A stretch of 64,000 nucleotides of DNA from a bacterium (GCA_021817785.1 JAKAFY010000007.1:127-64126), one strand, 5' to 3'; shown: positions 18,362 to 47,507, counted from the stretch's first letter. Translations and numbers: made by a program. Notes: generated by a model from the sequence alone, not told the origin.

Positions 18362-19471
18362 ATGAATATAAAATTACTTCAGGAGAATCTGTTACGGTCG
18401 TTAACAAAAGTGTCCAGAACCGTCCCTACACACCCACAACTTCCCATATTACAAAACGTTAAACTGGTCGCAAAAAAGGACGGGCTAGAAATAACCGCGA
18501 CAAACATGGAAACGACGGAAACCGTATGGGTTGGCGGCAAAGTGGAGAAAGAAGGGGAAGCATGCGTTGCTGCACGAACCCTGTTTGAATTTGTCGCGTC
18601 TCTTCCAGCGGAAACCGCCCAAATTATTTTAAAAGAAGAATCACTTTTTCTGTCCTGCGGAGGGTTTCAGGCAACACTTCCTACCGTTTCTTCGTCTGAA
18701 TTTCCTCCGACGCCGCTTTTAGACGAGAAGGCTGCCGGCTCTATAGATAAGGAGGTTCTAGAAAAAGCGCTTGCAAGCGTGCTTTTCTCTGCTGCGACAG
18801 ACGAGGGTCGACCGCTTCTTACCGGCGTTAAAATCATTGCAGATGGAGAGCACACACAACTTGTCGCCACAGATGGGTATCGGCTCTCGGTAAAAAAGGT
18901 AGCCATTACTATACAAAACCTTTCAGGAGTTATCGTTCCCGCACGCGCGCTTTCTGAGGTGGTTAAACTTGGAACGGAAGAAAAAGAAGAAAAAACGATA
19001 CATGTAGGAATAGCAGGAGAAAAACAAGCGGGATTTATCGTCGGAGAAACAACACTGCTTACCCGGCTCTTGGACGGGGAGTATCCCAACTTCGAGCGCA
19101 TTATCCCTAAAACGTTTACGACCCGGGCGCTTATCGAAAAAGAACCGTTTCTACGCGCGGTACGCTCTGCCGCGATATTTGCCAGAGACAATGCAAACAT
19201 TGTCCGATTGAACCTGGATAAGCAAAAAATTACCGTATCCGCAAATGCCCCACAGGTTGGAGAAAACAAAGTAGAACTCGAAGCAAAAATCGACGGGGAT
19301 GGGGGAGAGATCGCCTTTAACAGCAGATTCTTGATTGATTTTCTTACCAACTTTCCCGAGGAGGAATTCTTGTTTGAAATGACTGGCGCACTAAACTCCG
19401 GCGTGTTTAAGCCGGTGAAAGACGATGCATATCTTCATATCATCATGCCCGTACGCGTGACCGGCTCATAG
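18362..19471 (+). CDS. dnaN: DNA polymerase III beta sliding clamp.
   Basis: 'MNIKLLQENLLRSL' is a typical DnaN start. Three-domain length (~370 aa). Sits immediately after dnaA and oriC. Confidence 0.9.
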   Translation: MNIKLLQENLLRSLTKVSRTVPTHPQLPILQNVKLVAKKDGLEITATNMETTETVWVGGKVEKEGEACVAARTLFEFVASLPAETAQIILKEESLFLSCGGFQATLPTVSSSEFPPTPLLDEKAAGSIDKEVLEKALASVLFSAATDEGRPLLTGVKIIADGEHTQLVATDGYRLSVKKVAITIQNLSGVIVPARALSEVVKLGTEEKEEKTIHVGIAGEKQAGFIVGETTLLTRLLDGEYPNFERIIPKTFTTRALIEKEPFLRAVRSAAIFARDNANIVRLNLDKQKITVSANAPQVGENKVELEAKIDGDGGEIAFNSRFLIDFLTNFPEEEFLFEMTGALNSGVFKPVKDDAYLHIIMPVRVTGS

Positions 19472-22663: not shown

Positions 22664-24625
22664 TTATGTACTACTTTTTGTATTACCAACTGCTTCTACC
22701 GTAAACATCGGACGATTTGATCTTGGGAGGGTGGGTGGAGCCGTCAGCTCGGGAGCCGAAGACAGAGATGGCGGCTTTTTTGACGGCAGTTCCTGCATTG
22801 TCGGCACGGAAGACTGTTGTACGGCGGGGGTAGTCGGTTTCACCGTTTCCTGTGGACGCGTCGTGGCAAGCGCATGTTCTTCAGGGCTTGATACAACGCG
22901 CATTGCCGCGTGTGCGGGGCCTGCAAAAAACAACCCCTCTCCGATATCGGCCGCAAGCAGCAAATGTTTTTCCCCTTCAGATAAATAAAATACGTCGGCG
23001 ATTTTATCTATAGCCGCCGAAGATTGCTTAAGGAGAATCTGCATACTGCTGTTTTGGATAATCGCCTTTCCCATCTCCGTAGCCATAAAATCTTCCACGT
23101 CCTGGGTAATGGTGGTAAGTCCGAGATAATATTTTCTGGCCCGCTTGGCAATGCTATAGAGAAATTGCGCGGAATCCGGATATTTCATGAGATACCACGC
23201 CTCATCGACAATGAGGAGTCTTTTGCGCTTGTCATTTCTGATTTTGTTCCAGATAAAGTCCAGGATAAGATACATGGCAATGGGTCGGAGTTCATCTTCC
23301 AGATCCCGGATGGAAAAAACGGTCAGTTGATTTCGGATAGCTACGTTGGTTTGTTGGTCAAATATGCCGACTAAACTGCCCCGGACAAACTTTTCTATGC
23401 GGTCCGCCAACCCCTTGGCGAGGGGTTCTTCCATGCCGACAAGCGTTTTATACAGATCTTCCATAAGGGGAGGTTCTTTTGCGTGTGTAGTAGGATCCGG
23501 GGTGATGCCTTTCTGTTTGTATGTGAGGATAAGCGCGCGATCCAGTAATGCGTCCTCCGTCGGGGTAAGTTTGCCCATGACGACGCGGAAAAACCCATGG
23601 AGCGATAATATTTTTTGGCTGAGCTCGCTTTCTTCTCCGGCGGCATTACCAAGAAGGGCTAAGTCAAAGGGGTTTAGTTTCGTAACGGATCCGAAGCGAA
23701 ACCGGATATATTCGCCTCCCAGTGCATGAGTGACAGATTCATATTCATTCTCAGGGTCGATGATAATAACTTCCGTATCGAACATGAGAGAACGCATAAC
23801 CTCGAGTTTTACCATGTAGCTTTTACCGCCACCGGATTTTCCGAACACAACGGAGTTGGCATTTTCCAGCGTAAAACGGTCAAAGATAATTAAGCTGTCA
23901 TTGTGTTCATTCATGCCATATAAGATGCCCTCGTTTGCCGTAAGTTCGCTGGTGGTGAATGGGAAGGTGGTCGCAAGCGACGTGGTATCCATGTTTCTGG
24001 TGACGAGCAGCCGGTCTCTTCCCATGGGAAGCGTGGTTTTTAGCCCTTCCTCCATTTGTAAAATGGCTTTTTTGGTGACGATAAGCAGAGAGCCGAGTGT
24101 CGCCTCCACTTGCTTTGTCGCTTTGTCCAGGTCCTCTTTTGTTTTTGCGGGGATCGTAACATAGAGGCCAAACTGGAAAAATCGTTCCGACCCTTTTGCT
24201 AATTCCTGCTGCAGGGCAAGGGCGTCTTCTAGTGCCACCTGGATAGACGGCTCGATAACGCGGCCGCGTTTCAGGTCAGATTGTATGGTGGCCTCCATTT
24301 CCCCGACCTTGCGTTTCAGGTTTTCCAGTATTTCTTCGCTCCGCGTAGGGTAGATGTACATGGAAATATCCAACGTATGGTTAAACGACACAAGGGGTTC
24401 TAGCCAGTTGGCGGAGACGAATCTTGGATACCCCGCGACAAACAACGTCCGGTAATACCAGTCACCGACCTTTAGTAAATCAAAGTCCACTTCGATAGCA
24501 GGAGGCGCAATGATGTCCGTGACGACTAGCGGGCCGTCAATCGGCTTGGTCCGTGGGGACGGCCCCTCTGGCATGGGATTGATAAATTTTTTGAAAAGCG
24601 CCGCAATATCCGTATTATTTGCCAT
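22664..24625 (-). CDS. virB4: VirB4/TrbE/CagE-family type IV secretion ATPase.
   Basis: Walker A 'FGKSGGGKSYMVK'. Walker B 'RKRLLIVDEAWYLM'. ~650 aa with a VirB4-like C-terminal ATPase region. Confidence 0.85.
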   Translation of the reverse strand: MANNTDIAALFKKFINPMPEGPSPRTKPIDGPLVVTDIIAPPAIEVDFDLLKVGDWYYRTLFVAGYPRFVSANWLEPLVSFNHTLDISMYIYPTRSEEILENLKRKVGEMEATIQSDLKRGRVIEPSIQVALEDALALQQELAKGSERFFQFGLYVTIPAKTKEDLDKATKQVEATLGSLLIVTKKAILQMEEGLKTTLPMGRDRLLVTRNMDTTSLATTFPFTTSELTANEGILYGMNEHNDSLIIFDRFTLENANSVVFGKSGGGKSYMVKLEVMRSLMFDTEVIIIDPENEYESVTHALGGEYIRFRFGSVTKLNPFDLALLGNAAGEESELSQKILSLHGFFRVVMGKLTPTEDALLDRALILTYKQKGITPDPTTHAKEPPLMEDLYKTLVGMEEPLAKGLADRIEKFVRGSLVGIFDQQTNVAIRNQLTVFSIRDLEDELRPIAMYLILDFIWNKIRNDKRKRLLIVDEAWYLMKYPDSAQFLYSIAKRARKYYLGLTTITQDVEDFMATEMGKAIIQNSSMQILLKQSSAAIDKIADVFYLSEGEKHLLLAADIGEGLFFAGPAHAAMRVVSSPEEHALATTRPQETVKPTTPAVQQSSVPTMQELPSKKPPSLSSAPELTAPPTLPRSNRPMFTVEAVGNTKSST

Positions 24626-26771: not shown

Positions 26772-28949
26772 ATGAATGCATCTCCGCTGGAGTGCCTGGA
26801 GGTTGTCGGGAATAGATTAAGTGAGGAAACGCCGCTTGCGATGGAACAGGTGTTTGCCGCATTTGCCAATGTACGACGGGAGGCACTGTGGCGCAGGATT
26901 TTTTGGCCGGGGAGGGTACAATACGCAAGTTTCGAAATAGCGGTGATGAACGGGCAGATCCATTTTTTTATCGTTATCCCGGCTCATCTCCGGAATTTTA
27001 TCGAAGGGCAGCTGACGGCGCAATATCCTCGAGTGGTTATTACGCCGATTGTTGATTATCTTCCGTCATTTTTTAGTCGGCCACATGCGATAGCAAGACT
27101 TCGGATGTGGAGCAGTTTTTATTACCCGCTTAAAACCTACGAGGACGTTAAAGACGTTGACTTATTGTCGGCGGTGTTGGGGCAGCTGGCAAAGTTGCCA
27201 GCTAATCAGGCCGTATCCATACAATTTCGGGTAACTCCGGCCGGGCGAGGGTGGCAGGCGCAGGCTGCGCACGTCATCGCACAGGGCGTTCCTGACCCGA
27301 ATTCTCAGTACGGCCGTACGCGTCAGCACCCCGATAGCAGAATTATCGAAACAAAACTAAGCGCCAGCGGATTACGGACAGGTATTCGCATAGTGGCAGC
27401 CGCATCAAGTGAATCTGAGGCATTTGACGTGCTAACGCGCGTTTCAGGATCATTCGGTGTGTATACGTTGGGAGGGGGGAATAGTTTGTTTCAGCCGCGC
27501 ACGTTTGTGTGGCAGAGAGATAGGCTTACCCGATCCATACTTAAACGTGGTATTTATCTTACGCCCCGAACGCACGTACTAAACACCAAAGAGCTTGCAT
27601 CATTGTGGCATCCTCCCGGCATGTCTCTTGCAACCGTAAAAAACATCCAGTGGGGGCGGGGCCTTTTGGGAGAGCCGCCGCAAAACCTGCCGGTGGCTAC
27701 CGACAATGAGGAGGAGCGGAAAACGATCAACTTTTTCGCAAAATGCGAATGGCGCAACCAACAGGTGACATTTGGGATCAAGCAGGCAGACAGGAGGAAG
27801 CACCTTTATATTATCGGAAAAACCGGCACCGGAAAATCCACGACGATTGCCAACATGGCTATAAATGATATGAAAAACGGCTCAGGCATGGCCATAATCG
27901 ATCCGCACGGGGATTTGTCAGAAATACTGCTGCAGTACATTCCCTCCAACCGCATTAATGATGTGGCCTATCTGGATCCGTCGGACAGTGAACATCCGTT
28001 TCACTTAAATCCCCTGGAAGTGAAAAACCCGACCTATCGAGAATTAGTGGCAAGCGGCATCGTATCGATATTTTACAAGCTGTATCACATGAGTTGGGGA
28101 CCCAGGTTGGAATATATATTGCGAAACACAATTCTCACGCTCACCCTGGTGCCGCAATCCACGTTCCTGGATATCCCGGAGCTGCTTACCAACGAACTGT
28201 TCCGACAGAAAATTGTGGATCGGTTGGAAGACCGGGTGCTCAAAAATTTTTGGGTGAACGAATTTAATAAATTTACCCCCCGGCTTCATAGTGAGTCAAC
28301 ATCCCCGATACTCAACAAAGTCGGACAATTTTTATCGTCACAGACCATCCGAAATATCGTGGGACATCCCACGTCAACGATCGATTTGGAAACCATGATG
28401 AACGAAGGTAAAATCGTTATCATGAACCTGTCCCAGGGAAAGCTGGGGGAGGATAATAGCGCATTGTTAGGCGCCATGATGATTACCAAGATGCAGTTGG
28501 CCGCGATGAACCGCGTATATCTTGCCGAAGATGAGCGGCGGGATTTTTATCTGTACGTCGACGAATTCCAAAACTTTGCGACGCAGTCATTTATCAAAAT
28601 TCTGTCGGAAGCGCGAAAATACCGCCTCAACCTCATTTTAGCCAACCAGTATATCGGCCAGATTGACGAGGACGTACAAAAGGCAATTTTCGGCAACGCC
28701 GGCTCGCTTGTGTCGTTTGGTGTCGGTGCGGCAGACGCGCGGCTTTTGACGCATGAGTTCGGCAGCAAATATGAGGAGCAGGAATTAGTGGGACTTGGCA
28801 ACTACCAGATCATATTGAAACTTGCGATCGATAATCAGACGTCTCTTCCGTTTTCCGCCATGACGCTTCCGTTGCCCAGGTCCCGTAACGAACACCGGGA
28901 CACCGTTATCCGCGTTTCTCGCGAACGGTATACAAAAAAGGTACAATAA
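26772..28949 (+). CDS. virD4: VirD4/TraG/TraD-like coupling ATPase (FtsK/HerA superfamily) lacking an obvious N-terminal TM domain.
   Basis: Walker A 'IIGKTGTGKSTT'. Walker B 'FYLYVDEFQNF'. ~725 aa. Divergent from the virB4 operon. Confidence 0.65.
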   Translation: MNASPLECLEVVGNRLSEETPLAMEQVFAAFANVRREALWRRIFWPGRVQYASFEIAVMNGQIHFFIVIPAHLRNFIEGQLTAQYPRVVITPIVDYLPSFFSRPHAIARLRMWSSFYYPLKTYEDVKDVDLLSAVLGQLAKLPANQAVSIQFRVTPAGRGWQAQAAHVIAQGVPDPNSQYGRTRQHPDSRIIETKLSASGLRTGIRIVAAASSESEAFDVLTRVSGSFGVYTLGGGNSLFQPRTFVWQRDRLTRSILKRGIYLTPRTHVLNTKELASLWHPPGMSLATVKNIQWGRGLLGEPPQNLPVATDNEEERKTINFFAKCEWRNQQVTFGIKQADRRKHLYIIGKTGTGKSTTIANMAINDMKNGSGMAIIDPHGDLSEILLQYIPSNRINDVAYLDPSDSEHPFHLNPLEVKNPTYRELVASGIVSIFYKLYHMSWGPRLEYILRNTILTLTLVPQSTFLDIPELLTNELFRQKIVDRLEDRVLKNFWVNEFNKFTPRLHSESTSPILNKVGQFLSSQTIRNIVGHPTSTIDLETMMNEGKIVIMNLSQGKLGEDNSALLGAMMITKMQLAAMNRVYLAEDERRDFYLYVDEFQNFATQSFIKILSEARKYRLNLILANQYIGQIDEDVQKAIFGNAGSLVSFGVGAADARLLTHEFGSKYEEQELVGLGNYQIILKLAIDNQTSLPFSAMTLPLPRSRNEHRDTVIRVSRERYTKKVQ

Positions 28950-37677: not shown

Positions 37678-37908
37678 ATGAGCAGCATTGCCTATCAGCG
37701 GTTTATGAAACGATGGGAAGAAGTGACGGATTTGCCTCCTCAGTCCCTGGGGCCGCTGACCGGCGTATACAAATGGTGCACGAAACGGTTTAAAGTCATG
37801 CCGTGGCCGTGGTTTATCGGCGTCAGCATCGTCATTGCGATAGGGATATATATCATATTGGGATCCGCCATTTCGTATCTTGTCACGTTGCTCCAGAGGG
37901 GGTTTTAG
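37678..37908 (+). CDS. Small single-TM protein directly downstream of the ECF sigma. Candidate anti-sigma factor.
   Basis: 76 aa with a C-terminal TM 'WPWFIGVSIVIAIGIYIILGSAI'. Four bp downstream of the sigma stop. Its position is the only functional evidence. Confidence 0.3.
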   Translation: MSSIAYQRFMKRWEEVTDLPPQSLGPLTGVYKWCTKRFKVMPWPWFIGVSIVIAIGIYIILGSAISYLVTLLQRGF

Positions 37909-37961
37909 CACTCGCCACCCCGTTCGCGCAGGTTTTATCCACCAATTACGACTACCTAAGT

Positions 37962-38585
37962 ATGGACGTTCTAACGGCGCTCGTCGTGGGGGGGATTGGT
38001 TTCGGCAGGACCGCTATCGGGCTGGTCACGCGGCCCTATGAAACCTATCGCCGGATAGTCAGCTATAGCAGGATTAGTGAGTTGGTGTTTGTCGGGCTTT
38101 TCGCGGGCATCTATTTTGCGTTTGCAAGCATGGTGAAGGGGGCCGCCTTCCGTCCGTTTCTTTTTACGCGCCAATTTATCGTTTTGTATGCGGCGGCTGC
38201 GGGGGGCTACGGTATCGCCATTGGCTCTCTGTGGTTGGCAGGTGTAGTGCTACGGGCCACGTTTCATCTGCGTGCGCTGTTTCTTGCGTGGGGATATACA
38301 TTACTGCCGACGGTTGCATGGTTTTTGGCAACCTCGCTTCTGTATGTGATCCTTCCTCCTCCGCGGACCACCAGCACGCTGGGTATCGCTTTCAGCATAT
38401 TGTTTTTGATATTTAGCGCGACGCTGTTTTGGTGGAAAATGATGCTGTCCTACCTTACGCTCCGTTTTGTGTTTAAATTTGATTTATCCCGCATCGGGAT
38501 GGCAAGTATGATCGTACTTCCGATTATGGCTGCCTATAGCGTACTCATGTACTACTGGGGCATATTTAAAATTCCGTTTTTATGA
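37962..38585 (+). CDS. Hypothetical polytopic membrane protein. The start is taken at the internal Met of ORF 37803..38585.
   Basis: Five or more hydrophobic helices. Its stop overlaps the HMG-CoA reductase start. Confidence 0.3.
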   Translation: MDVLTALVVGGIGFGRTAIGLVTRPYETYRRIVSYSRISELVFVGLFAGIYFAFASMVKGAAFRPFLFTRQFIVLYAAAAGGYGIAIGSLWLAGVVLRATFHLRALFLAWGYTLLPTVAWFLATSLLYVILPPPRTTSTLGIAFSILFLIFSATLFWWKMMLSYLTLRFVFKFDLSRIGMASMIVLPIMAAYSVLMYYWGIFKIPFL

Positions 38586-39748
38586 ACATACGCCAATATA
38601 CAAGTATTGCCGATCGCAGAAACGCGTTAGAAAAAATGACGGGGACATCGTTTTCCCACATCGGATCATATTCGCTGGATGAAAAAACAGCCTCATCCAG
38701 GCATTGTGAAAATATGATTGGGGTGACCCAGGTGCCGATGGGAGTTGCGGGCCCGCTTTATATAACTCATGTATCGGGGAATACCGGTCATGAATATTAT
38801 ATCCCGCTGTCTACGACAGAAGGGGCGTTAGTTGCGTCCGTCAATCGCGGCTGTAAAGCAATTACCGAATGCGGTGGCGCGGTTACAGACAGTCACGCCG
38901 TGGGAGCGACACGGGGACCGGTGTTTAGAGTAAAAAACCTTCAAGAAAGCCGCCGTCTGTATGAATATGTAAAGACGCATAAACGTGCGCTTGAAGAGGT
39001 GGCATCAAAAACGTCGCATCATTTAACGCTCCATAATATATTGACGCGCGGAGTAGGTCGATATCGATATATCCGGTTTGTGTTTGATACGCAGGATGCC
39101 ATGGGAATGAACATGGTCACGATAGCCTCTGAGGCAATCGCTGCATACATAGAGCGAGAAACCGGCATAGCGTGCCTTGCCGTCGCGGGCAATTTTGATA
39201 TTGATAAAAAACCGGCGTGGTTAAACTTTATTGAAAATCGGGGAACAAAAGCATGGGCAGAAGTTACCATCCCGAAGCATATCCTGAAGAACGTGCTTAA
39301 AACGACGGCACGGGACATATATGACGTGTGGCTTGCCAAATGCATGATTGGAAGTGCTATGAGCGGATCCATGGGATTTAATGCGCAGTACGCCAACATC
39401 GTGGCCGCCATGTTTTTGGCAACCGGCCAGGACCTGGGGCATATTGGCGAGGGAAGCATGGGAATAACAACTGCGGAGGTGGTCGATAATCATGATCTGT
39501 ATATCAGCGTGTATCTGCCGGATCTCATGGTGGGCACCGTGGGCGGGGGGACTGCGCTTGCAACACAAGAAGAGGCGCTACGCCTCTTGGGAATTGCCGG
39601 CGGCAAAGACGGGAGTCATGCGGCTGTATTTGCCGAAATTATCGGAGCCGCTGTGTTGGCCGGGGAAATCTCACTGCTCGCGTCCCTTTCTCAGGGGACA
39701 TTGGCAAAAGCCCATGAAGTTTTGGCCCGAGGAGGGAAACGCCCATGA
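38582..39748 (+). CDS. Hydroxymethylglutaryl-CoA reductase (class I-like, archaeal/eukaryotic-type catalytic domain).
   Basis: 'DAMGMNMVT' HMGR signature, plus 'GTVGGGT'. ~388 aa. Confidence 0.85.
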   Translation: MNIRQYTSIADRRNALEKMTGTSFSHIGSYSLDEKTASSRHCENMIGVTQVPMGVAGPLYITHVSGNTGHEYYIPLSTTEGALVASVNRGCKAITECGGAVTDSHAVGATRGPVFRVKNLQESRRLYEYVKTHKRALEEVASKTSHHLTLHNILTRGVGRYRYIRFVFDTQDAMGMNMVTIASEAIAAYIERETGIACLAVAGNFDIDKKPAWLNFIENRGTKAWAEVTIPKHILKNVLKTTARDIYDVWLAKCMIGSAMSGSMGFNAQYANIVAAMFLATGQDLGHIGEGSMGITTAEVVDNHDLYISVYLPDLMVGTVGGGTALATQEEALRLLGIAGGKDGSHAAVFAEIIGAAVLAGEISLLASLSQGTLAKAHEVLARGGKRP

Positions 39749-40788
39749 TCGGTATCGTTTCCTACGGAACATATATCCCGTGGTATCGGCTAAAACTAGC
39801 TGACGTTGCGGCGGTGTGGAAAAAAGATCATCGCGAAATTATCCCGTCACTGGGGGTCGAAGAAAAAGCGGTTCCCGCGTCGGATGAAGACGCCGTAACA
39901 ATTGCCCTAGAAGCGGCACGGCAGAGCCTTACTGATTTTCCCGGGGCGTCGACGGATATCGATGTGTTGTTTGTAGGAAGCGAAAGCCATCCGTATGCGG
40001 TAAACCCCACCTCAACGATTGTGGGCGAGCTGCTTGGCATGGGCCACCATTATTTGGCTGCCGACATGGAATTTGCGTGTAAAGCGGGAACCGCCGGCAT
40101 GGTCGCCATAGCCGGTATGGTTGCTGCAGGACACGCACGGTATGGATTGGCAATTGGTGCCGATACGGCGCAAAGCAAGCCGCATGACGCGCTGGAATAT
40201 ACCTCGGCGGCAGCTGGCGCTGCATATCTTTTGGGAAGCGAACATATCGCCGTGCGGCTCCTTGGAGATACGTCGTATTCTTCTGACACTCCCGATTTTT
40301 GGCGTCGTGACGGAATACGGTATCCCTCACATGCAGGCAGATTTACCGGGGAACCTGCATATTTTACCCACGTGATGGGTGCGGCGACCCGCATGCTGGA
40401 AATGACCAATATGAAACCGTCTGACTTCGATTGGTGCGTATTCCACATGCCAAACGGTAAATTTCCCCGGGCCGCAGCAAAACGGTTAGGGTTCACCGCT
40501 TCCCAGCTTGCGCCGTCGCTTACGGTGGATTCCATAGGGAATCCGTACTCTGCCTCTGCAATGTTGGGGCTAGCTGCGGTGCTTGATGTAGCCAAGCCGG
40601 GCCAGAAGATTTTTATGGTGTCGTATGGGTCCGGTGCCGGAAGCGATGCGTTTGTGTGGGAGACGACGGAAGAGTTAGTCAAACGTCAAAAGGTAAAAGT
40701 AAAAAATAACGCATTGGTACGGCAACAAATCGAGAATAAAACATATATCAGTTATGTTCAATATTTAAAACAGACACACAAAATTTAA
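39745..40788 (+). CDS. Hydroxymethylglutaryl-CoA synthase, archaeal type.
   Basis: 'MIGIVSYGTYIPWYRL' is the typical archaeal-type HMGS N-terminus. Thiolase-fold length ~347 aa. Confidence 0.85.
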   Translation: MIGIVSYGTYIPWYRLKLADVAAVWKKDHREIIPSLGVEEKAVPASDEDAVTIALEAARQSLTDFPGASTDIDVLFVGSESHPYAVNPTSTIVGELLGMGHHYLAADMEFACKAGTAGMVAIAGMVAAGHARYGLAIGADTAQSKPHDALEYTSAAAGAAYLLGSEHIAVRLLGDTSYSSDTPDFWRRDGIRYPSHAGRFTGEPAYFTHVMGAATRMLEMTNMKPSDFDWCVFHMPNGKFPRAAAKRLGFTASQLAPSLTVDSIGNPYSASAMLGLAAVLDVAKPGQKIFMVSYGSGAGSDAFVWETTEELVKRQKVKVKNNALVRQQIENKTYISYVQYLKQTHKI

Positions 40789-40823
40789 AGAATGCAGGGT
40801 GAGAGATGGGGGCTCGTACAGCG

Positions 40824-40862
40824 CTCTAAACTCTAAACTCTAAACTCTAAACTCTAAACTCT
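40824..40862. repeat. Heptanucleotide tandem repeat (CTCTAAA)x5.6 immediately abutting the thiolase start codon.
   Basis: Read directly from the sequence: gcgCTCTAAACTCTAAACTCTAAACTCTAAACTCTAAACTCTatg. Confidence 0.9.
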
Positions 40863-42002
40863 ATGCATATTTATGTAACCGGTGCCGCGACAACAAAATT
40901 TGGAGAGCTATGGAGCGCATCTCCTCGGGGGCTTGCTCGGCAAGCGGTGTTCGGTGCGTTAAAGGATGCCGGGCTTGAAGCGAAACGCGTACAGGCACTT
41001 TTCGTCGGCAACATGCTTTCCGGGATGCTTGGCGGGCAGGAGCACCTGGGAGCATTTTTTGCCGAAGAGCTGGGACTTACGGTTCCTGCTTTTAAAATAG
41101 AAGGCGCGTGTGCGTCCGGCGGGTTGGCCGTACATAATGCGGTTAACAGCCTCTTAAGCGGTCAGTATGAGACGGTCGTCGTGCTCGGCATAGAAAAAAT
41201 GACAGATCATAAACCTGAGGACGTCGCAACGGCGTTAATGGGTGCAGGAAGCGAAGATGAGCGGTTGGCCGGCGCTACGTTTCCCGGACTCTATGCCATG
41301 ATAGCGAGGGCACATATGCAACAGTTTGGCACGACAGAAGAAGACATGGCAGCAGTTGCGGTTAAAAATCATTATCATGCGACGCTTAACCCCAACGCAC
41401 AGTTCCATGCCGAAATAACCGTCGAAGCGGTTATGAAAAGCAGTAAAATTGCGGACCCCTTAAAATTATTGGACTGTTCGCCTATTTCGGACGGGGCCGC
41501 AGCTATTGTGCTGAGTACAAAACGATCTCCCCACAGCGTCGAGGTCGCAGCATCCGTGGTTGCAACTGATACATTGGGACTTGCACAGAGAAAAAGCCTT
41601 ACGCAACTTGCCGCAACGAAGCAAGCTGCGCAAAAAGCCTATACATTGGCCGGGATACTCCCCGAAGACGTCGACGCCTCCGAAGTTCATGATTGTTTTA
41701 CTATTGCAGAAATACTAGCCGCGGAAGACCTGGGTTTTTTTGCAAAAGGGAACGCGGCAGCGGCGATTAGGAAAGGGAAAACAACACTGGGTACATCAAC
41801 GGGTGTTGTCTTAAATCCCTCCGGAGGACTCAAGGGGTGCGGACATCCCGTGGGGGCCACAGGAGTGAAGCAAATCGCCGAATTGGTAGAACAACTGCGC
41901 GGAAACGCCGGGAAACGACAAGTACACGATGCCCGGGTGGGATTGGCACACAATGTCGGCGGTAGCGGAGCGACAGCGGTTATACATATTTTAAAAACAT
42001 AA
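40863..42002 (+). CDS. Acetyl-CoA acetyltransferase (thiolase), archaeal-type. Partner of HMGS/DUF35.
   Basis: 'MHIYVTGAATTKFGE' N-terminus. Catalytic-Cys context 'EGACASGG'. C-terminal 'GHPVGATG'. Confidence 0.85.
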   Translation: MHIYVTGAATTKFGELWSASPRGLARQAVFGALKDAGLEAKRVQALFVGNMLSGMLGGQEHLGAFFAEELGLTVPAFKIEGACASGGLAVHNAVNSLLSGQYETVVVLGIEKMTDHKPEDVATALMGAGSEDERLAGATFPGLYAMIARAHMQQFGTTEEDMAAVAVKNHYHATLNPNAQFHAEITVEAVMKSSKIADPLKLLDCSPISDGAAAIVLSTKRSPHSVEVAASVVATDTLGLAQRKSLTQLAATKQAAQKAYTLAGILPEDVDASEVHDCFTIAEILAAEDLGFFAKGNAAAAIRKGKTTLGTSTGVVLNPSGGLKGCGHPVGATGVKQIAELVEQLRGNAGKRQVHDARVGLAHNVGGSGATAVIHILKT

Positions 42003-42120
42003 TATGCCAGGTAGTAGAGTTTCGACACGCTATTTTCATTGCGCATCGAATAGATTACCTGAACATATAGAATAGGTATGAAAAGAAAGGAGATCGAAAT
42101 TTTCACCGCGTAAAAACGCA

Positions 42121-42444
42121 ATGGTCGAAATTTCACTACCTGGTATGCAAAGTCCGGTCAAAATTTGGCGGAATCAGAAGAATATTGCGCAACTTCTCGG
42201 GAAAACCGGAACAATCGTTTCGTGGACGCTCATCCGCGTGCCGCCCGGCGACTTTATGGACCAGGCACCGTACCCTGTGGTATTAGCGGAGTTAGAAGAC
42301 GGAAAACGCATAGAGGCGCAATTGGTGGATTGGAAAGACACACATCTTGCATTCGGTACAAAGGTAAAAACAGTTATCCGCTGCGTCATGCGTCCGGATG
42401 CTGATGGAGTGATACCCTATGGCATAAAAGTGAAACCCATTTAG
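42121..42444 (+). CDS. DUF35 OB-fold protein (scaffold of the thiolase/HMG-CoA synthase complex).
   Basis: 107-aa OB-fold-type sequence directly downstream of the thiolase, as in archaeal operons. 'VSWTLIRVPPG...VVLAELEDGKRIEAQL'. Confidence 0.55.
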   Translation: MVEISLPGMQSPVKIWRNQKNIAQLLGKTGTIVSWTLIRVPPGDFMDQAPYPVVLAELEDGKRIEAQLVDWKDTHLAFGTKVKTVIRCVMRPDADGVIPYGIKVKPI

Positions 42445-42479: not shown

Positions 42480-43421
42480 ATGAAAAAAGTTACCGTTTCC
42501 GTTCCGGGAAAAATCCATCTCATGGGCGAACATGCCGTCGTGTATGGCAAGCCGGCATTGTTATCTGCTATAGATTTGCGGCTTTCTGTATCCATAGAGC
42601 CTTCCGAAACCTTTGAAATTATTTCCAGTGAGCCAACGGATCATGCGAAGTATGCCGTAGATTTTTTGTTAGACCACATGAAAGTAAAAAAGGATCCATT
42701 GGTGAAAATTACGATCGAATCGGAAATTCCCGCAGGGTTTCACCTCGGCTCCTCCGCGGCGGTCGCCGTAGGGTTATCCGGAGCGATGACATATTTTTTC
42801 AAAAACTTATGGAACCCCATACGGATCAATGAATTGGCGTATCAAATCGAAAAAAAGCAGCACGGCAACCCATCCGGCGGTGATAACACGACCATAACCA
42901 TGGGCGGATTTATCTGGTTCCGGAAGGAATTGGAATTTTTGAAAAGCATCTGGCAGCTTCCATTTAAACCCCACCCGTCGCTTAACCATTTTTTCCTTAT
43001 CAAAACCAAACGCCCATCCGAAACGACCGGAGAAATGGTGGCGCTCGTACGTGCGCGATACACAAAAGAACAAAAGAAAATGGAAGCGCTTTTCAATCGT
43101 AATGAAACTCAGGTGAAGCGGGTGGCTGTTGCCCTGAAAGAGGGAAATGAAAAGGAACTCCTCGACGCGATTCAGGTAGGCGAGTCAACCCTGGAGGGTA
43201 TGGGGGTGGTAAGCCAAATAGTGCAGTCGCTTATTCGTGAAATTGAAAAGAGCGGGGGTGCGGCAAAAATATTAGGAGGCGGGGGAGTGAAAGACGGAGT
43301 AGGGTTTTTATTGTGCTACCATCATGAACCAAAGCGCATCGCTGCATTGTGTAAAGCGCATGAATACACAACGCAATCAATTATTCTTGGCGAAGAAGGG
43401 ATTCGTCTGGAACAACGATGA
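42480..43421 (+). CDS. Mevalonate kinase (GHMP kinase).
   Basis: 'PGKIHLMGEHAVVYGKPAL' plus the GHMP ATP motif 'GFHLGSSAAVAVG'. Confidence 0.75.
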   Translation: MKKVTVSVPGKIHLMGEHAVVYGKPALLSAIDLRLSVSIEPSETFEIISSEPTDHAKYAVDFLLDHMKVKKDPLVKITIESEIPAGFHLGSSAAVAVGLSGAMTYFFKNLWNPIRINELAYQIEKKQHGNPSGGDNTTITMGGFIWFRKELEFLKSIWQLPFKPHPSLNHFFLIKTKRPSETTGEMVALVRARYTKEQKKMEALFNRNETQVKRVAVALKEGNEKELLDAIQVGESTLEGMGVVSQIVQSLIREIEKSGGAAKILGGGGVKDGVGFLLCYHHEPKRIAALCKAHEYTTQSIILGEEGIRLEQR

Positions 43422-44887
43422 ACATTACCGTCTCAGCTCCGGGAAAACTTATGATATTTGGCGAGCACGCCGTCGTGTATGACCGGCCGTGTCTGGTGAC
43501 CGCGGTTGATCAGCGCATGCGGGCCACGGTCGAACTTACAGATGATAACGCATTTCATCTCGATGCTCCCGAGGTCAATGTCTCGGGGTATAAGCGGCCG
43601 ATGACAGAGTTAGGAACAGGGGATATACCCAAAGGCGCAAAATTTGTGGAAATCGCAGTCAAAAATTTTATTGAAAAATATCCTTTTTCCTCCGGAATAC
43701 AGATCGTCACCGCTTCAGATTTTTCTTCCCTATTCGGATTCGGGTCGTCGTCTGCTTCAACAGTGTGTGTGCTGAAAGCACTCTCGGAGCTTACCGGAAA
43801 AATACTGGACAACAAGGCGTTATTTGACCTCGCCTACAAAACCGTGTTGGATGTGCAGGGAAAAGGATCCGGATTTGATGTGGCAGCGGCAATCTACGGC
43901 GGGACACTCTATTTTGTAACGGGAGGAAACATCATAGAGCCCTTGCAGGTTGACACGATGCCGCTCGTAATCGGATACACCGGGGTAAAAGCAGACACGG
44001 TAACGCTCATGACGGCTGTTGCAGAAAAAATGAAGGCGCAGCCGGAACGGGTGGGCAGGATTTATGACGCGATTGCCAAACTTACGGAAGAGGCAAAAAC
44101 AAAACTATTGGAAGGAGACTGGGAACGGGTAGGAAGACTTATGGACTTTAACCAGGATTATCTTCGTGATGTGGGAGTCAGCTCGGAAATCTTAGAAGCA
44201 CTTATATCGGCAGCAAAGTCGGCCGGAGCGTTTGGCGCGAAATTGTCAGGAGCAGGGGGAGGGGATTGTATGATTTCCGTAACGCCGGACCACAGCAGGC
44301 CGAACGTGGAAGCGGCGATTGAAGCGGCTGGTGGACAAGTTATCCACATAGCAGCAAATGCCCCCGGCGTGCGCGTTGAGACCGATGACCAAAACGAACT
44401 ATTTGTCGTTGTCGACGAAAACGATCATGTCGTGGGACATAAAACGCGTCAGGAATGCAATCATAATCCGGCCCTGATTCACCGGGCGGTTGAATTACTG
44501 ATTTTTGATTCACACGGACGGGTCTTGTTGCAGAAACGCAGCATGACCAAAGATACGCGGCCGGGCTTTTGGTCAACGTCTGTTGGTGGACACGTCGGAA
44601 AAGATGAATCATATGAAACGGCGATGCGGCGGGAACTTCAGGAAGAATTGGGAATACAGATTCCTATTGTCTACGTCAGTAAACAAATCGTGCATTTTAC
44701 AGAGGAAACTGAGATGGAAGCATTATTTACGGCCACATACGACGGACCATTCCACACCAATCCGCAGGAAATGGATGAGGTAAAATTTTTTGATAAACGG
44801 GAAATTGTATTCGGACTCGCAACAAATAAACTCCAGCTGACAGAAGCGGCACTGCAAAATCTGAAAACGATGGGAGTATTGTCATGA
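43418..44887 (+). CDS. Fusion protein: N-terminal GHMP kinase (phosphomevalonate-kinase-like) fused to a C-terminal type-1 (Nudix) isopentenyl-diphosphate isomerase.
   Basis: N-terminus 'PGKLMIFGEHAVVYDRPCL' and 'GFGSSSASTV' (GHMP). C-terminus 'HRAVELLIFDSHGRVLLQKRS...WSTSVGGHVGKDESYETAMRRELQEELGI' (Nudix/IDI-1 box). Confidence 0.7.
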   Translation: MNITVSAPGKLMIFGEHAVVYDRPCLVTAVDQRMRATVELTDDNAFHLDAPEVNVSGYKRPMTELGTGDIPKGAKFVEIAVKNFIEKYPFSSGIQIVTASDFSSLFGFGSSSASTVCVLKALSELTGKILDNKALFDLAYKTVLDVQGKGSGFDVAAAIYGGTLYFVTGGNIIEPLQVDTMPLVIGYTGVKADTVTLMTAVAEKMKAQPERVGRIYDAIAKLTEEAKTKLLEGDWERVGRLMDFNQDYLRDVGVSSEILEALISAAKSAGAFGAKLSGAGGGDCMISVTPDHSRPNVEAAIEAAGGQVIHIAANAPGVRVETDDQNELFVVVDENDHVVGHKTRQECNHNPALIHRAVELLIFDSHGRVLLQKRSMTKDTRPGFWSTSVGGHVGKDESYETAMRRELQEELGIQIPIVYVSKQIVHFTEETEMEALFTATYDGPFHTNPQEMDEVKFFDKREIVFGLATNKLQLTEAALQNLKTMGVLS

Positions 44888-45864
44888 AAGCAACGGCTGT
44901 GGCTCCCGCAAACATAGCATTTATTAAATATTGGGGCAGGACCGATGCGGCGCTACGTTTGCCGGCAAACGCGTCTATATCCATGAACCTGTCCGCATCT
45001 ATTACTACGACGACGGTGGAATTTTCTGATGCATTGTCCCAAGACACTATCGAATTATTAGAGCCGGGAGGGTTTAGTGAGAAAGAAATACGGCGCGTTG
45101 TACGTCAGTTAGATGTTGTACGAAACAAAGCGCGTACTCGGGTATTTGCCCGTGTGGCGACCAAAAATACATTTCCGAAATCAACGGGTGCCGCATCTTC
45201 GGCATCCGGATTTGCAGCGCTTACGGTTGCTGCCGCGTCTGCCCTAGGATTATCCCTATCGGAAAAAGAGTTGACCATTCTTGCGCGCGTGGGGAGCGGG
45301 TCTGCCTGCAGGAGTATTCCGGATGGATTTGTAAAATGGGAGGGGGGAGATAGTGCGTCATCATTCGCCCACTCCCTGTATCCTGCTTCATACTGGGATA
45401 TTCGTGATGTTTTGGCGATTGTCGGCAGTACCGGAAAAGATGTTTCTTCAACTGCCGGTCACGATTCTGTGCGTACCAGCCCATATTTTTTACGCAGATT
45501 AGACGCAGTAGCCGGAAGAATCACGCGTATAGAACAGGCACTGAAGGATAAAAATTTTCAGATGCTCGGAACGGTTATTGAAGAAGATTGTCTGGATATG
45601 CATCACGTGATGCAGACCCAGGTGCCGCCGCTTCTCTATTGGAGTGACGCCACACGCATGCTTATGGACGCGGTCCGGAATTGGCGCACAAACGGAATTC
45701 CCGTATACTTTACCATTGATGCCGGTCCGAATGTGCACCTTATTTGCGAAGGGAAGGATGAGGACAGGGTTCTTGACGCTATAAAAGCCGTAAGCGGGGT
45801 AGAAAATGTGATTTTAAACAAGCCAGCGGGGGGCGCAAGAATTAGTACCAAACACCTATTTTAG
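44884..45864 (+). CDS. Diphosphomevalonate decarboxylase.
   Basis: 'APANIAFIKYWGR' MVD N-terminal signature. 'GSGSACRS'. ~326 aa. Confidence 0.85.
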   Translation: MKATAVAPANIAFIKYWGRTDAALRLPANASISMNLSASITTTTVEFSDALSQDTIELLEPGGFSEKEIRRVVRQLDVVRNKARTRVFARVATKNTFPKSTGAASSASGFAALTVAAASALGLSLSEKELTILARVGSGSACRSIPDGFVKWEGGDSASSFAHSLYPASYWDIRDVLAIVGSTGKDVSSTAGHDSVRTSPYFLRRLDAVAGRITRIEQALKDKNFQMLGTVIEEDCLDMHHVMQTQVPPLLYWSDATRMLMDAVRNWRTNGIPVYFTIDAGPNVHLICEGKDEDRVLDAIKAVSGVENVILNKPAGGARISTKHLF

Positions 45865-45898: not shown

Positions 45899-46582
45899 AT
45901 GAAAAAGATAAACATACCTCAGCATATAGCCATCATCATGGATGGAAACCGTCGCTGGGCCAAAGAACACGGTTTATCCGTGCTCGCGGGGCATCAGAAG
46001 GTCGCAGATGAGGTGTTGGAGCCATTAGTGGAGCATGCGGCCGTCCGCGGGGTTCACTATCTAACGTTTTGGGCATTTTCTACGGAAAACTGGAAGCGGA
46101 ATGCCGCAGAAGTCGAAGGTATCATGCGGATTTTCCGCCACGTCATCCGTAAGCGGTGGGCAAGGTTGCATGAAAAAGGCGTGCGGGTGCGGGTCATCGG
46201 GGACGTATCAAAATTCGCTCCCGATATACAGGAATCTCTCCGAAAAGTAACAGAACAAACAAAAGATAACAAAAAAATTACAGCGGTATTCGCGTTAAAT
46301 TACGGAGGGCGAAATGAAATTCTCCGTGCCATACAACAGATCGCACATCCGGAAGCACTTACGGAAGAAGATTTTTCCGGACTTCTCGATACGTCCGGCA
46401 TACCGGATCCGGATTTGATTATCAGAACGAGCGGGGAACAGCGATTATCCGGATTTTTGCCCTGGCAGGGGGTGTATAGCGAATTATATTTTCCGCCGTT
46501 TCATATGCCGGATTTCACACCGGAACGGTTAGATGAAGCGATACTGGAATACCAACAGCGGCAGCGCCGGTTTGGAAAATAG
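45899..46582 (+). CDS. uppS: Undecaprenyl diphosphate synthase (cis-prenyltransferase).
   Basis: 'HIAIIMDGNRRWAKE' and 'YLTFWAFSTENWKR' cis-IPPS motifs. Confidence 0.9.
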   Translation: MKKINIPQHIAIIMDGNRRWAKEHGLSVLAGHQKVADEVLEPLVEHAAVRGVHYLTFWAFSTENWKRNAAEVEGIMRIFRHVIRKRWARLHEKGVRVRVIGDVSKFAPDIQESLRKVTEQTKDNKKITAVFALNYGGRNEILRAIQQIAHPEALTEEDFSGLLDTSGIPDPDLIIRTSGEQRLSGFLPWQGVYSELYFPPFHMPDFTPERLDEAILEYQQRQRRFGK

Positions 46583-46918
46583 TTATTGGCCGAAGATCGC
46601 GCCAATGCTGCTTTGCCAGCCGAAGATTATCCCTGCAATCTGCACGATCCAGAACGCGGCGAATATGATAAGGAATCCAATGATCGCATTGGTCAGAGTA
46701 GCCTTTCCCTTTTCCATTTTTTTTGGGTCCCCGGCTGAGGTCATAAGCGTAAATCCGCTTGCGATAATCATCAGAAGGAGTCCTATCCCGGCAAATCCGA
46801 AGATGTATGAAAGCGACTGGCCGATGATGGTTCCGATAGTGGCATTTGCAAACGCAAAATTTTGTGGTCCCTGGATAGTATAATCACCAATAGAAAAAGA
46901 TTGCGCGAGTAATTTCAT
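46583..46918 (-). CDS. VirB2/TrbC-like pilin paralog 7 (remote copy).
   Basis: Core 'SGFTLMTSAGDPKKMEKGKATLTNAIIGFLIIFAAFWIVQIAG'. N-terminal 'MKLLAQS'. Confidence 0.5.
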   Translation of the reverse strand: MKLLAQSFSIGDYTIQGPQNFAFANATIGTIIGQSLSYIFGFAGIGLLLMIIASGFTLMTSAGDPKKMEKGKATLTNAIIGFLIIFAAFWIVQIAGIIFGWQSSIGAIFGQ

Positions 46919-47418
46919 AGCCCAGATTTCCCCCCGCCAAATCCCGGCAGAGTTAATATGTCAACTCCGATGAGTTTGAGGAGAAATACCGAAAAAATGA
47001 TAAGAAGCAATCCGGAAATTGCAGCAGTCATAAGTTCTTTGGCGGCGTGCAGCTTTTCCGGATTGCCGGTACTGGTAATTGTCTGAAATCCTGAAAATAA
47101 AATAAGCAAAAACGCAACACCGCCCCCTATGCTCGTACCAATTTGGATAAACGACTGAAGAAAGTCGTTGAGTGATGAACCCGTGCCGCCGCCTCTACCA
47201 AGACAGCCCACCGCGGTCCACGCGCCGCCCGAGTTAAAACAGCCAGTGCAATCGCTTTGAGCGGATCCAGAGAGAGATTTACACGTATTTTGGCCCACCG
47301 AGGTTGGAGCGTCCGCCAAAACATTTAAAGCAGTAAATGTCTCATGCATGGCAGGCAAGCCCAAAAAAAGGCCCAAGCTGAAAAAAAATAAATATAGCGA
47401 CAGAACAGCCCGTTTCAT
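46915..47418 (-). CDS. Pilin-like protein with a signal peptide and a Cys-rich N-terminal extension (paralog 8; possible minor/tip pilin). The start is taken at the internal Met (MKRAVL...) of ORF 46915..47496.
   Basis: Signal peptide 'MKRAVLSLYLFFFSLGLFLGLPAM'. Four Cys in 'CKSLSGSAQSDCTGCFNSGGAWTAVGC'. C-terminal core 'SGFQTITSTGNPEKLHAAKELMTAAISGLLLIIF'. Confidence 0.45.
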   Translation of the reverse strand: MKRAVLSLYLFFFSLGLFLGLPAMHETFTALNVLADAPTSVGQNTCKSLSGSAQSDCTGCFNSGGAWTAVGCLGRGGGTGSSLNDFLQSFIQIGTSIGGGVAFLLILFSGFQTITSTGNPEKLHAAKELMTAAISGLLLIIFSVFLLKLIGVDILTLPGFGGGKSGL

Positions 47419-47507
47419 GTGCTTTAAGTGTAGCAAATTTGACAGGATAAGAAAAGAAGCCCGAGGACCCTCAGGTGATTGTTTGGTCTGGTACAATGGA
47501 ATGACTC

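Follow-up and report, generated by a model that had tools for sequence, protein, structure and literature searches.

What happens when a kinase of isoprenoid biosynthesis is joined to a Nudix domain, and is the second half of such a protein really the isomerase of the pathway? The question is raised by a 64,000-nucleotide stretch of bacterial DNA (GCA_021817785.1, JAKAFY010000007.1:127-64126; hereafter the window, with positions counted from its first letter), in which one open reading frame (ORF) of a mevalonate operon encodes a GHMP kinase followed by a Nudix domain. A first-pass annotation read this protein as a presumed phosphomevalonate kinase (PMK) fused to a type-1 isopentenyl diphosphate (IPP) isomerase (IDI-1). 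We find that the fusion is genuine and lineage-specific, and that it lies in the mevalonate operon of a Gottesmanbacteria-like bacterium of the candidate phyla radiation (CPR, or Patescibacteria). Its kinase half is probably the PMK of the pathway, and its Nudix half is not a canonical IDI-1 and is somewhat more likely to be a hydrolase of isoprenoid diphosphates. For the account taken whole, a true fusion of a PMK-like kinase with a hydrolase-type Nudix domain, our confidence is evenly balanced, and we regard it as the best explanation available.

The fusion is laid out as follows.

43418-44887, + strand: fusion ORF, GHMP kinase plus Nudix, 489 residues (ORF list, Pfam, identical public protein)
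43418-44380, + strand: GHMP kinase domain, here called GHMP2, residues 1-321, probably a PMK (Pfam, NCBIfam, PDB, signatures, neighbor-joining tree)
44366-44416, + strand: domain junction, GVRVE / TDDQNELFVVVD (sequence; split genes in the related loci L013, L018/L019 and L025)
44381-44884, + strand: Nudix domain, here called type A, residues 322-489; IDI/YfcD-like, without the catalytic Cys and with an intact hydrolase box

From the ATG at 43418 to the stop at 44887 the + strand holds a single unbroken reading frame of 489 residues, and the fusion ORF is a real, intact single gene. The three domains that the first-pass annotation led us to expect are all matched by Pfam far above the gathering score: GHMP_kinases_N (residues 77-162, E 5.6e-15), GHMP_kinases_C (residues 229-303, E 3.1e-15) and NUDIX (PF00293, residues 355-464, E 1.1e-19, 71.1 bits against a gathering score of 21.1). 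The motif quoted in that annotation, GG.VG..ES...A..REL.EELG, is likewise present, at residues 391-413. At the junction (GVRVE-TDDQNELFVVVD) the frame is unchanged and no stop codon occurs; the C terminus of the kinase passes directly, essentially without a linker, into an N terminus of the kind seen in stand-alone Nudix proteins (M-TDDQNELF). The start of the gene overlaps the stop of the upstream kinase gene as ATGA at 43418-43421, and a second ATGA, at 44884-44887, is shared by its stop codon and the start codon of the decarboxylase gene. An AlphaFold2 model of the whole chain, built from a 102-sequence alignment, is confident, also at the junction (predicted local distance difference test score, pLDDT, 94.1; predicted template modeling score, pTM, 0.81), which suggests that the kinase and Nudix domains would be held in a fixed arrangement.

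The same architecture recurs widely among relatives. In a database search, 103 of the 120 best clusters were fusion-length proteins with 47-76% identity, and classification by motif of all 377 collected proteins recognized 99 as fusions of the kinase with a type A Nudix domain; their carriers are mostly Gottesmanbacteria, and independent assemblies account for about 99 such protein clusters. Scanning species-representative genomes returned 15 loci with the same operon order in all. Where their record titles are informative, these read Candidatus Gottesmanbacteria or 'Patescibacteria group'; eight records of metagenome-assembled genomes are titled 'uncultured Gammaproteobacteria'. Of the 15 loci, 7 have the two halves fused, one (L013) encodes them in adjacent overlapping genes and 6 lack the Nudix part. 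In these six close relatives the kinase is 77% identical and the decarboxylase gene lies directly 3' of it. Roizmanbacteria (L018/L019) and a CPR contig that is probably from Daviesbacteria (L025) encode the kinase and a Nudix protein of 164-165 residues in separate genes, spaced by a 7-nt gap or an ATGA (4-nt) overlap, and the free Nudix proteins begin M(PK/T)D(N/D)Q(D/N)ELFVVVD. Because Roizmanbacteria and L025 keep both halves as adjacent genes, the fusion appears to have arisen by loss of the stop codon between neighboring genes of the operon, which remain distinct in other Microgenomates. The description of this architecture as non-standard is thus only partly apt: no description or characterization of a kinase-type A fusion was found in the literature searched, yet the fusion is common in Gottesmanbacteria, and fusions of kinases with IDI-family domains have arisen several times. 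It is common within one CPR class, is already in public databases and is not a rarity.

A separate gene content difference was seen between the two kinases of the operon in a Gottesmanbacteria relative without the Nudix part, where a 270-residue S-adenosylmethionine-dependent methyltransferase is encoded (L007:9175-9987, equivalent to L021:9181-9993); L008 has a 93-residue ORF at that spot.

The kinase half and its upstream paralog are best compared through their motifs.

42480-43421, + strand: upstream paralog, here called GHMP1, 313 residues, probably mevalonate kinase (MVK) (Pfam, NCBIfam, motifs)
43439-43480, + strand: motif I of GHMP2, PGKLMIFGEHAVVY, with the MVK-like His/Tyr and not the PMK form GEYAVVE
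43736-43759, + strand: motif II of GHMP2, ATP-binding P-loop GFGSSSAS
43856-43903, + strand: catalytic-Asp motif of GHMP2, QGKGSGFDVAAAIYGG (Asp154), PMK-type
44246-44269, + strand: motif III of GHMP2, SGAGGGDC (Asp283, as in PMKs; MVKs have GGGGC)

GHMP2 has the N and C domains, the P-loop of motif II and the catalytic Asp that define the GHMP kinase superfamily, and the first-pass view of it as a paralog of the upstream kinase is borne out by its 23% identity to GHMP1. None of 102 fusions departs from Asp154 or Asp283, and the family shows no variation in GFGSSSAS or motif III. Public databases name the fusion protein 'mevalonate kinase'. Based on the residues around the active site, we propose that GHMP2 is probably the PMK of the pathway and GHMP1 its MVK, an assignment that contradicts this database annotation.

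The reference set comprised the MVK and PMK of E. faecalis (from its classical mvk-mvaD-pmk-fni operon), the MVK and PMK of Streptomyces and the MVK of Natrinema, with further MVKs from M. mazei, Methanococcoides burtonii, L. major and M. jannaschii through PDB alignments. In all seven reference MVKs a Glu precedes the [HQ]G of the catalytic-Asp motif by 4-5 residues, the Asp and the residues after it read D[NTA]xx[ST] and motif III is of the GGGGC type, whereas both reference PMKs lack the MVK Glu and show GSxxD[IL]AAS..(Y/W)GG together with SGAGGGDC. In GHMP2 (VLDVQGKGSGFDVAAAIYGG plus SGAGGGDC) the MVK signatures are missing: VLDVQG provides no MVK Glu, the residues after the Asp read D-V-A-A-A, and motif III contains GGGDC. 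It shows both PMK motifs, QGxGSxxD[IVL]AA..YGG and SGAGGGDC, alongside the MVK-like motif I GEHAVVY. The catalytic-Asp motif of E. faecalis PMK, VQGNGSCGDIAASCYGG, is of the same type as that of the fusion kinase, and the Listeria PMK homolog 3K17 was the sole PDB chain returned by a search with the isolated motif. GHMP1 (EKKQHGNPSGGDNTTIT), by comparison, has the first two signatures, the Glu and the residues after the Asp, in their MVK form; its MVK-type E..HGNPSGGDNTTIT has E..HGxPSGxD[NT] in common with the seven real MVKs, in keeping with the earlier reading of the upstream gene as the MVK. Motif III of GHMP1 (43272-43307) bears a 2-residue insertion (GGGGVKDGVGF against GAGGGGC), yet this paralog is conserved across all related loci.

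The assignment also agrees with a neighbor-joining tree (200 bootstraps, two PMK references), in which GHMP2 groups with PMKs in 70% of replicates, GHMP1 with PMKs in 27% and GHMP2 with archaeal MVKs in 6%. Like GHMP2, the GHMP-type PMKs of E. faecalis, Streptomyces, S. pneumoniae (1K47, 3GON) and Listeria (3K17) have VQGxGSxxD[IVL]AA..YGG and SGAGGGDC and lack the MVK Glu. GHMP2 also clusters with PMKs in the tree and stands before the decarboxylase in the operon. Direct fusions of GHMP2 to the decarboxylase exist elsewhere (P0234 and the single-contig P0081), which fits consecutive steps of the pathway. Moreover, Hoshino & Gaucher report a basal 'PMVK' in CPR bacteria (PMC6107057), with which GHMP2 as a PMK agrees. 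GHMP2 would then be an early-branching, MVK-like PMK.

The converse assignment, in which the fused kinase is the MVK, as annotated, and GHMP1 the PMK, is a rival explanation that we hold to be doubtful. Several observations weigh on its side and against our own: the global similarity of GHMP2, its motif I and its score with the MVK model TIGR00549 (196.1 bits, cut-off 163.05) all point to MVK. Its best PDB match is M. mazei MVK (135 bits; Foldseek TM 0.89), and it is 31-33% identical to Methanosarcinales MVKs, with a family-profile score of 207 bits. With the PMK models TIGR01220, NF040957 and TIGR01219 it stays below cut-off (93.8 against 165.7, 81.6 against 500 and 34.8 against 377 bits). 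GHMP1 is the more divergent paralog (77 bits for its best single-sequence PDB match, 139 bits with a profile); it has the inserted motif III, and Pfam returns no GHMP_kinases_C match for it. The grouping of GHMP2 with PMKs is drawn from two PMK references by distance methods, at the stated 70% support.

On the other side, GHMP1 scores above the TIGR00549 cut-off as well (172 bits) and carries both the MVK Glu and HGNPSGxDN, and the PMK models score it lower than GHMP2 (52 and 34 bits, with no match to the ERG8-type model). The MVKs of M. mazei and M. burtonii (6MDE, 8TEB), near-identical to GHMP2 in the motif III region and alike over the full length, have GGGGC, D-T-Y-V-S-T and the upstream Glu, where GHMP2 has GGGDC, D-V-A-A-A-I and no Glu. 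The tree and the direct joining of GHMP2 to the decarboxylase in other clusters speak against the converse assignment as well. Two candidate discriminators were set aside: both paralogs have the ligand contacts of M. mazei MVK (Lys, His, Ser, Asp), and by model and PDB scores both paralogs are MVK-like, with GHMP2 higher against every model. The earlier claim of a PMK is therefore plausible, carried by the catalytic-Asp motif, motif III and the tree and opposed by the annotation and TIGR00549.

The Nudix half departs more sharply from the first-pass reading. Its diagnostic positions were read from an alignment of 103 fusions and 109 stand-alone homologs against E. coli Idi and YfcD (MG1655 record).

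44447-44485, + strand: RQECNHNPALIHR, with Arg344, Asn348 and His355 at the positions of IDI Lys21, His25 and His32
44585-44587, + strand: Gly390 at the position of IDI-1 Cys67 (STSVGGH against E. coli NSVCGHP)
44588-44656, + strand: Nudix box GX5EX7REUXEEXGU, GHVGKDESYETAMRRELQEELGI; His392 corresponds to IDI His69
44705-44719, + strand: ETEME, in which Glu430 and Glu432 correspond to the IDI metal/catalytic residues Glu114 and Glu116

No sequence in either set has a Cys at the column of Cys67, the acid/base residue that IDI-1 carries in the motif NxxC[GS]HP: the fusions have Ala (68), Gly (24), Ser (10) or Thr (1), and the stand-alone homologs Gly (71), Ser (28), Ala (6) or Thr (4). The equivalents of Tyr104 and Trp161, which in IDI-1 help with protonation and stabilize the carbocation, are Val and Ala here, and both columns are variable across the family. 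Other parts of the IDI site are kept. The diphosphate binders Lys21 (as Arg), Arg51 and Lys55 are 92-100% conserved; the equivalents of His32, His69, Glu114 and Glu116 are conserved at 98-100% in the fusions, and in the stand-alone homologs at about 100% for the two His and 85-88% for the two Glu. The window protein has the type-1 IDI metal site in H355, H392, E430 and E432, with Asn348 at the His25 column, where 92% of the fusions have His.

The REL.EELG segment that had been taken for an IDI-1 box is in fact a canonical Nudix hydrolase box. Residues G391-I413 fit the consensus GX5EX7REUXEEXGU, as defined in PMC5389931, exactly. The glutamates E406, E409 and E410 do not vary, R405 is conserved at 90% or more, and every sequence in the alignment has the canonical box. 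True IDI-1s open the box with RR or KR (RRCRYE in E. coli; KRLSEE, RRLTEE and RRLKEE in our data set) and carry the catalytic Cys, so that type A has RE..EE where IDI has RR..(Y/A/E)E. With the curated IDI models the isolated domain stays below cut-off (NF002995, 92.1 against 127 bits; TIGR02150, 74.6 against 105.8 bits), and the whole fusion protein reaches 88.6 and 71 bits. The YfcD model NF011922 also remains below cut-off (83 against 152 bits), and YfcD is the best PDB sequence match (E 1.7e-15). Foldseek with the whole-chain model returned kinases only, and the Nudix domain was therefore modeled separately (AlphaFold2, pLDDT 96.8); its top match is then YfcD (TM 0.84-0.87), followed by human IDI1/2, DR0079 and E. 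coli Idi, and all of the top matches are Nudix proteins.

Based on these residues, scores and folds, the Nudix half belongs to a distinct family, type A, that lies between the YfcD-type hydrolases and IDI-1. With type-1 IDI (E. coli Idi, human IDI1/IDI2) it shares the Nudix subfold (TM 0.78-0.85), an N-terminal beta-hairpin extension and the pathway context, besides the binders and metal ligands given above. With E. coli YfcD (2FKB), a putative Nudix hydrolase, it shares the fold at an rmsd of 1.7-2.2 Å, 30% identity, the canonical box and a GPF motif; YfcD lacks the IDI-type H25, H69, E114 and E116 that type A keeps, and it is unlinked to a mevalonate operon. The claim of a C-terminal type-1 IPP isomerase (EC 5.3.3.2) is not supported: with Gly at Cys67, Tyr104 and Trp161 unconserved, IDI models below cut-off and YfcD as the nearest structure, the defining features of a canonical type-1 IDI are missing as far as sequence can tell.

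Further information on what type A does comes from the company it keeps. An exhaustive search of 50%-identity representatives, followed by Pfam and reading of the sequences, showed that IDI-family domains and lower-pathway kinases have been fused repeatedly, in several domain orders.

P0337: MVK-type kinase plus Cys-containing IDI-1
P0339: IDI-1 plus PMK-like kinase
P0365: HMGR-MVK-IDI-1, 952 residues
P0341: Nudix-Nudix-PMK, 697 residues, including a type A domain
P0367: type A plus type A
P0373: type A plus type B
P0234: GHMP2-decarboxylase, 646 residues, no Nudix domain
P0237: GNAT-kinase

P0337, P0339 and P0365 carry a Cys-containing IDI-1, unlike the window protein, which has only the Cys-less type A domain. 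Two proteins, P0334 (L030:928-2022) and P0340 (L029:74-1141), combine in one chain a canonical IDI-1 (CCSHP, TPW) and, C-terminal to it, a type A domain; their genes lie within mevalonate operons, adjacent to that for DUF35 or a GHMP kinase. In addition, L013 (12446-12967, - strand) and L025 (11691-12203, + strand) have an IDI-like gene of a second kind, 'type B', near the type A gene of the operon. These tandem proteins and coexisting genes imply that type A is tied to the pathway and is non-redundant with IDI-1.

Type B (P0378-P0497) is abundant in Candidatus Daviesbacteria. It has a degenerate box of the IDI type and equivalents of Tyr104, Trp161, Glu114 and Glu116; at the Cys67 site 120 matches read GATHP (83), STHP (10), ISHP (4) and, in only 13, the canonical CSHP, and the members that we read have a Cys directly before Glu114 (CENE[YH]C). 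Given this replacement and the type A pattern, both CPR types of 'IDI-I' are without the canonical Cys. In Woesebacteria (L020:8001-8573, and the JGI contig with P0168), a gene for a CsoR-like repressor precedes a type A gene that is flanked by those for thioredoxin and thioredoxin reductase; this conserved non-isoprenoid context hints that the substrate of type A might be different or broader. Other distant type A proteins have unrelated gene neighborhoods.

We somewhat favor a role for the type A domain as an isoprenoid-diphosphate hydrolase and not as the isomerase. Because the diphosphate binders of IDI-1 and the His/Glu metal site are kept across the family, the domain is expected to bind a C5 diphosphate such as IPP or dimethylallyl diphosphate (DMAPP). 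Hydrolysis, dependent on Mg2+ or Mn2+, would convert IPP or DMAPP to isopentenyl phosphate (IP) or dimethylallyl phosphate (DMAP) and inorganic phosphate, and could serve as a relief valve linked to the pathway or as a supply of monophosphates. This outcome is preferred to isomerization because the hydrolase box is intact, Cys67, Tyr104 and Trp161 are missing, type A is non-redundant with IDI-1 and the domain has been cleanly lost in close relatives.

Literature searches found no characterized enzyme of the type A Nudix family. For the proposed chemistry, a precedent may lie in M. mazei MM_2582, which Ishibashi and colleagues are said to have described in 2022 as a Nudix hydrolase that prefers IPP and DMAPP; together with the IP-IPP cycle of plants, run by isopentenyl phosphate kinase (IPK) and a Nudix enzyme, it exemplifies conversion of IPP and DMAPP to monophosphates. 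The NCBIfam model 'Nud_hyd_Meth' (NF041653), which we assume to represent the MM_2582 family, matches type A only in part, over the N-terminal half of the Nudix domain and far below cut-off (65 against 300 bits), and no IPK or UbiX was seen near the operon of the window.

Four considerations weigh against a hydrolase. First, IDI-2, canonical IDI-1, type B and IPK were not found in the 64-kb window or in 10-kb operon flanks at the Gottesmanbacteria loci by tblastn with E. faecalis IDI-2, Natrinema IPK, E. coli Idi and two type B proteins, and Pfam recognized no alternative isomerase or IPK among 20 other ORFs of the window. Second, the operon ends in a cis-prenyltransferase, an enzyme whose allylic primer ultimately derives from DMAPP, so the domain could be the isomerase that provides it. 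Third, a plain hydrolase does not readily account for the conserved IDI-specific His/Glu metal site, which YfcD lacks. Finally, it would be strange for a reduced genome to tie an enzyme that destroys the pathway product so firmly to the pathway.

These points lead to the alternative that type A is the IPP:DMAPP isomerase of the pathway without the canonical Cys, in which case 'kinase-isomerase' would be functionally right; both proton transfers could be accomplished, for example, by a metal-activated Glu116 equivalent together with water or another residue. Conservation of H32, H69, E114, E116 and the diphosphate binders is consistent with such an enzyme, as are the lack of any other isomerase in the window or its flanks and the fixed place of the gene between kinase and decarboxylase across Microgenomates operons. 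P0337, P0339 and P0365 fuse a canonical IDI-1 to these kinases in the same fashion. Hoshino & Gaucher found 'IDI-I' universal and IDI-II sparse in CPR bacteria; in that study fused proteins were trimmed and catalytic residues were not examined (PMC6107057). Nonetheless, we consider this isomerase rather doubtful. Across 212 sequences Cys67, Tyr104 and Trp161 are missing or unconserved, while the hydrolase box that true IDI-1s have lost is strictly conserved. The occurrence of type A in tandem with a canonical IDI-1 speaks for a function that IDI-1 does not already cover, close relatives do without the domain, and family members also occur outside isoprenoid contexts. The more specific proposal that Cys-less type A, joined to the PMK, is the sole IPP:DMAPP isomerase of these Gottesmanbacteria is in our judgment unlikely. 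If it were true, type A, and probably also Daviesbacteria type B, would isomerize without the canonical Cys, Tyr and Trp, by a catalytic mechanism new to the Nudix/IDI-1 fold.

It is quite improbable that type A lacks a specific isoprenoid substrate and entered the operon by chance or as a regulator of the kinase, whether as a general diphosphatase (house-cleaning or acting on nucleotides) or as a ligand sensor without catalytic activity. The presence of YfcD, whose function is unknown, and of the Deinococcus Nudix hydrolase DR0079 among the nearest structures would suit such a role, as would relatives that adjoin thioredoxin and thioredoxin reductase or unrelated genes and the dispensability of the domain. 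Repeated independent fusion and synteny with mevalonate kinases and IDI-1 in several domain orders, however, and the conservation of IDI-type substrate and metal ligands weigh against it, and the invariant catalytic residues speak against a purely regulatory part.

Weakest is the idea that sequencing or assembly merged two genes, for which one may cite the ATGA overlaps between operon neighbors, where a small indel could join frames, and the 812-residue triple fusion P0081, known from only one contig; it is effectively excluded because an identical protein is present on 5 contigs (NCBI, ENA, Logan), because about 99 distinct fusions from NCBI, JGI, ENA and Logan, some on contigs longer than 1 Mb, share the conserved junction, whose origin the split-gene relatives explain, and because AlphaFold2 models the junction with confidence.

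If the Nudix half is a hydrolase tied to the pathway, what is the fusion for? The first-pass annotation had suggested that it channels the last steps of the pathway, a view that pathway order contradicts: whichever kinase is considered, its product must pass through the decarboxylase step before isomerization and is not itself an isomerase substrate. We therefore rejected channeling of consecutive steps. The benefit probably lies instead in fixed stoichiometry and co-assembly of lower-pathway enzymes, with no shared intermediate to be channeled. The confident inter-domain model and the occasional extra fusion to the decarboxylase or to HMGR hint at a complex of lower-pathway enzymes.

The genes around the fusion are arranged as follows.

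37803-38585, + strand: multi-pass membrane protein, 260 residues; its stop overlaps the start of the HMG-CoA reductase gene
38582-42444, + strand: upper pathway block (ORF list, Pfam), made up of the next four genes
38582-39748, + strand: HMG-CoA reductase (ORF list, Pfam)
39745-40788, + strand: HMG-CoA synthase (ORF list, Pfam)
40863-42002, + strand: archaeal-type thiolase (ORF list, Pfam)
42121-42444, + strand: DUF35/OB protein (ORF list, Pfam)
44884-45864, + strand: diphosphomevalonate decarboxylase (TIGR01240, 260 bits against a cut-off of 171)
45899-46582, + strand: undecaprenyl-diphosphate synthase, a cis-prenyltransferase and consumer of the pathway product (Pfam)

GHMP1 and the fusion stand between the DUF35 protein and the decarboxylase, giving the order reductase, synthase, thiolase, DUF35, GHMP1, fusion, decarboxylase and undecaprenyl-diphosphate synthase in a tight, translationally coupled operon. 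The membrane protein gene at 37803-38585 is syntenic in all 15 related loci, where relatives match the Yip1 family; Pfam gave no match for the window's own copy.

Elsewhere in the window, a pilin pair (small genes of the T4SS-pilin family) directly 3' of the undecaprenyl-diphosphate synthase gene is syntenic in relatives. Type IV secretion-like ATPases, a TraG P-loop/VirB4-like protein and a coupling-protein-like protein, are encoded together with these two T4SS-pilin-family genes at 22664-24625 (- strand), 26772-28949 (+ strand) and 46583-47496 (- strand). The genes dnaA (16817-18184) and dnaN (18362-19471) lie on the + strand; the cumulative GC skew has its minimum at about 14-18 kb and rises after it, and the replication origin is therefore probably just upstream of dnaA. 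On the - strand, 15741-16757 gives a near full-length match (E 1e-50) to PF03214, 'reversibly glycosylated polypeptide', a family familiar mainly from plants. This gene borders a low-GC region of glycosyltransferase and O-antigen-ligase genes (1-16 kb, with a GC fraction of about 0.42, compared with about 0.50 elsewhere).

These observations bear on how isoprenoid synthesis in CPR bacteria is understood. Their mevalonate route has been scored as complete, including 'IDI-I', from homology at the BLAST level (PMC6107057), and this completeness has been used in arguments on the ancestry of isoprenoid synthesis. The operon 'IDI-I' of Microgenomates lacks the catalytic residues of an isomerase and keeps a hydrolase motif, which makes the source of DMAPP a testable question. 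Either these bacteria have a new route of IPP isomerization, or their isomerase is encoded elsewhere or missing and the operon includes a dedicated isoprenoid-diphosphate hydrolase. Both outcomes would correct the annotation of hundreds of sequences. The main value of the fusion is that it draws attention to the isomerase step of CPR mevalonate pathways.

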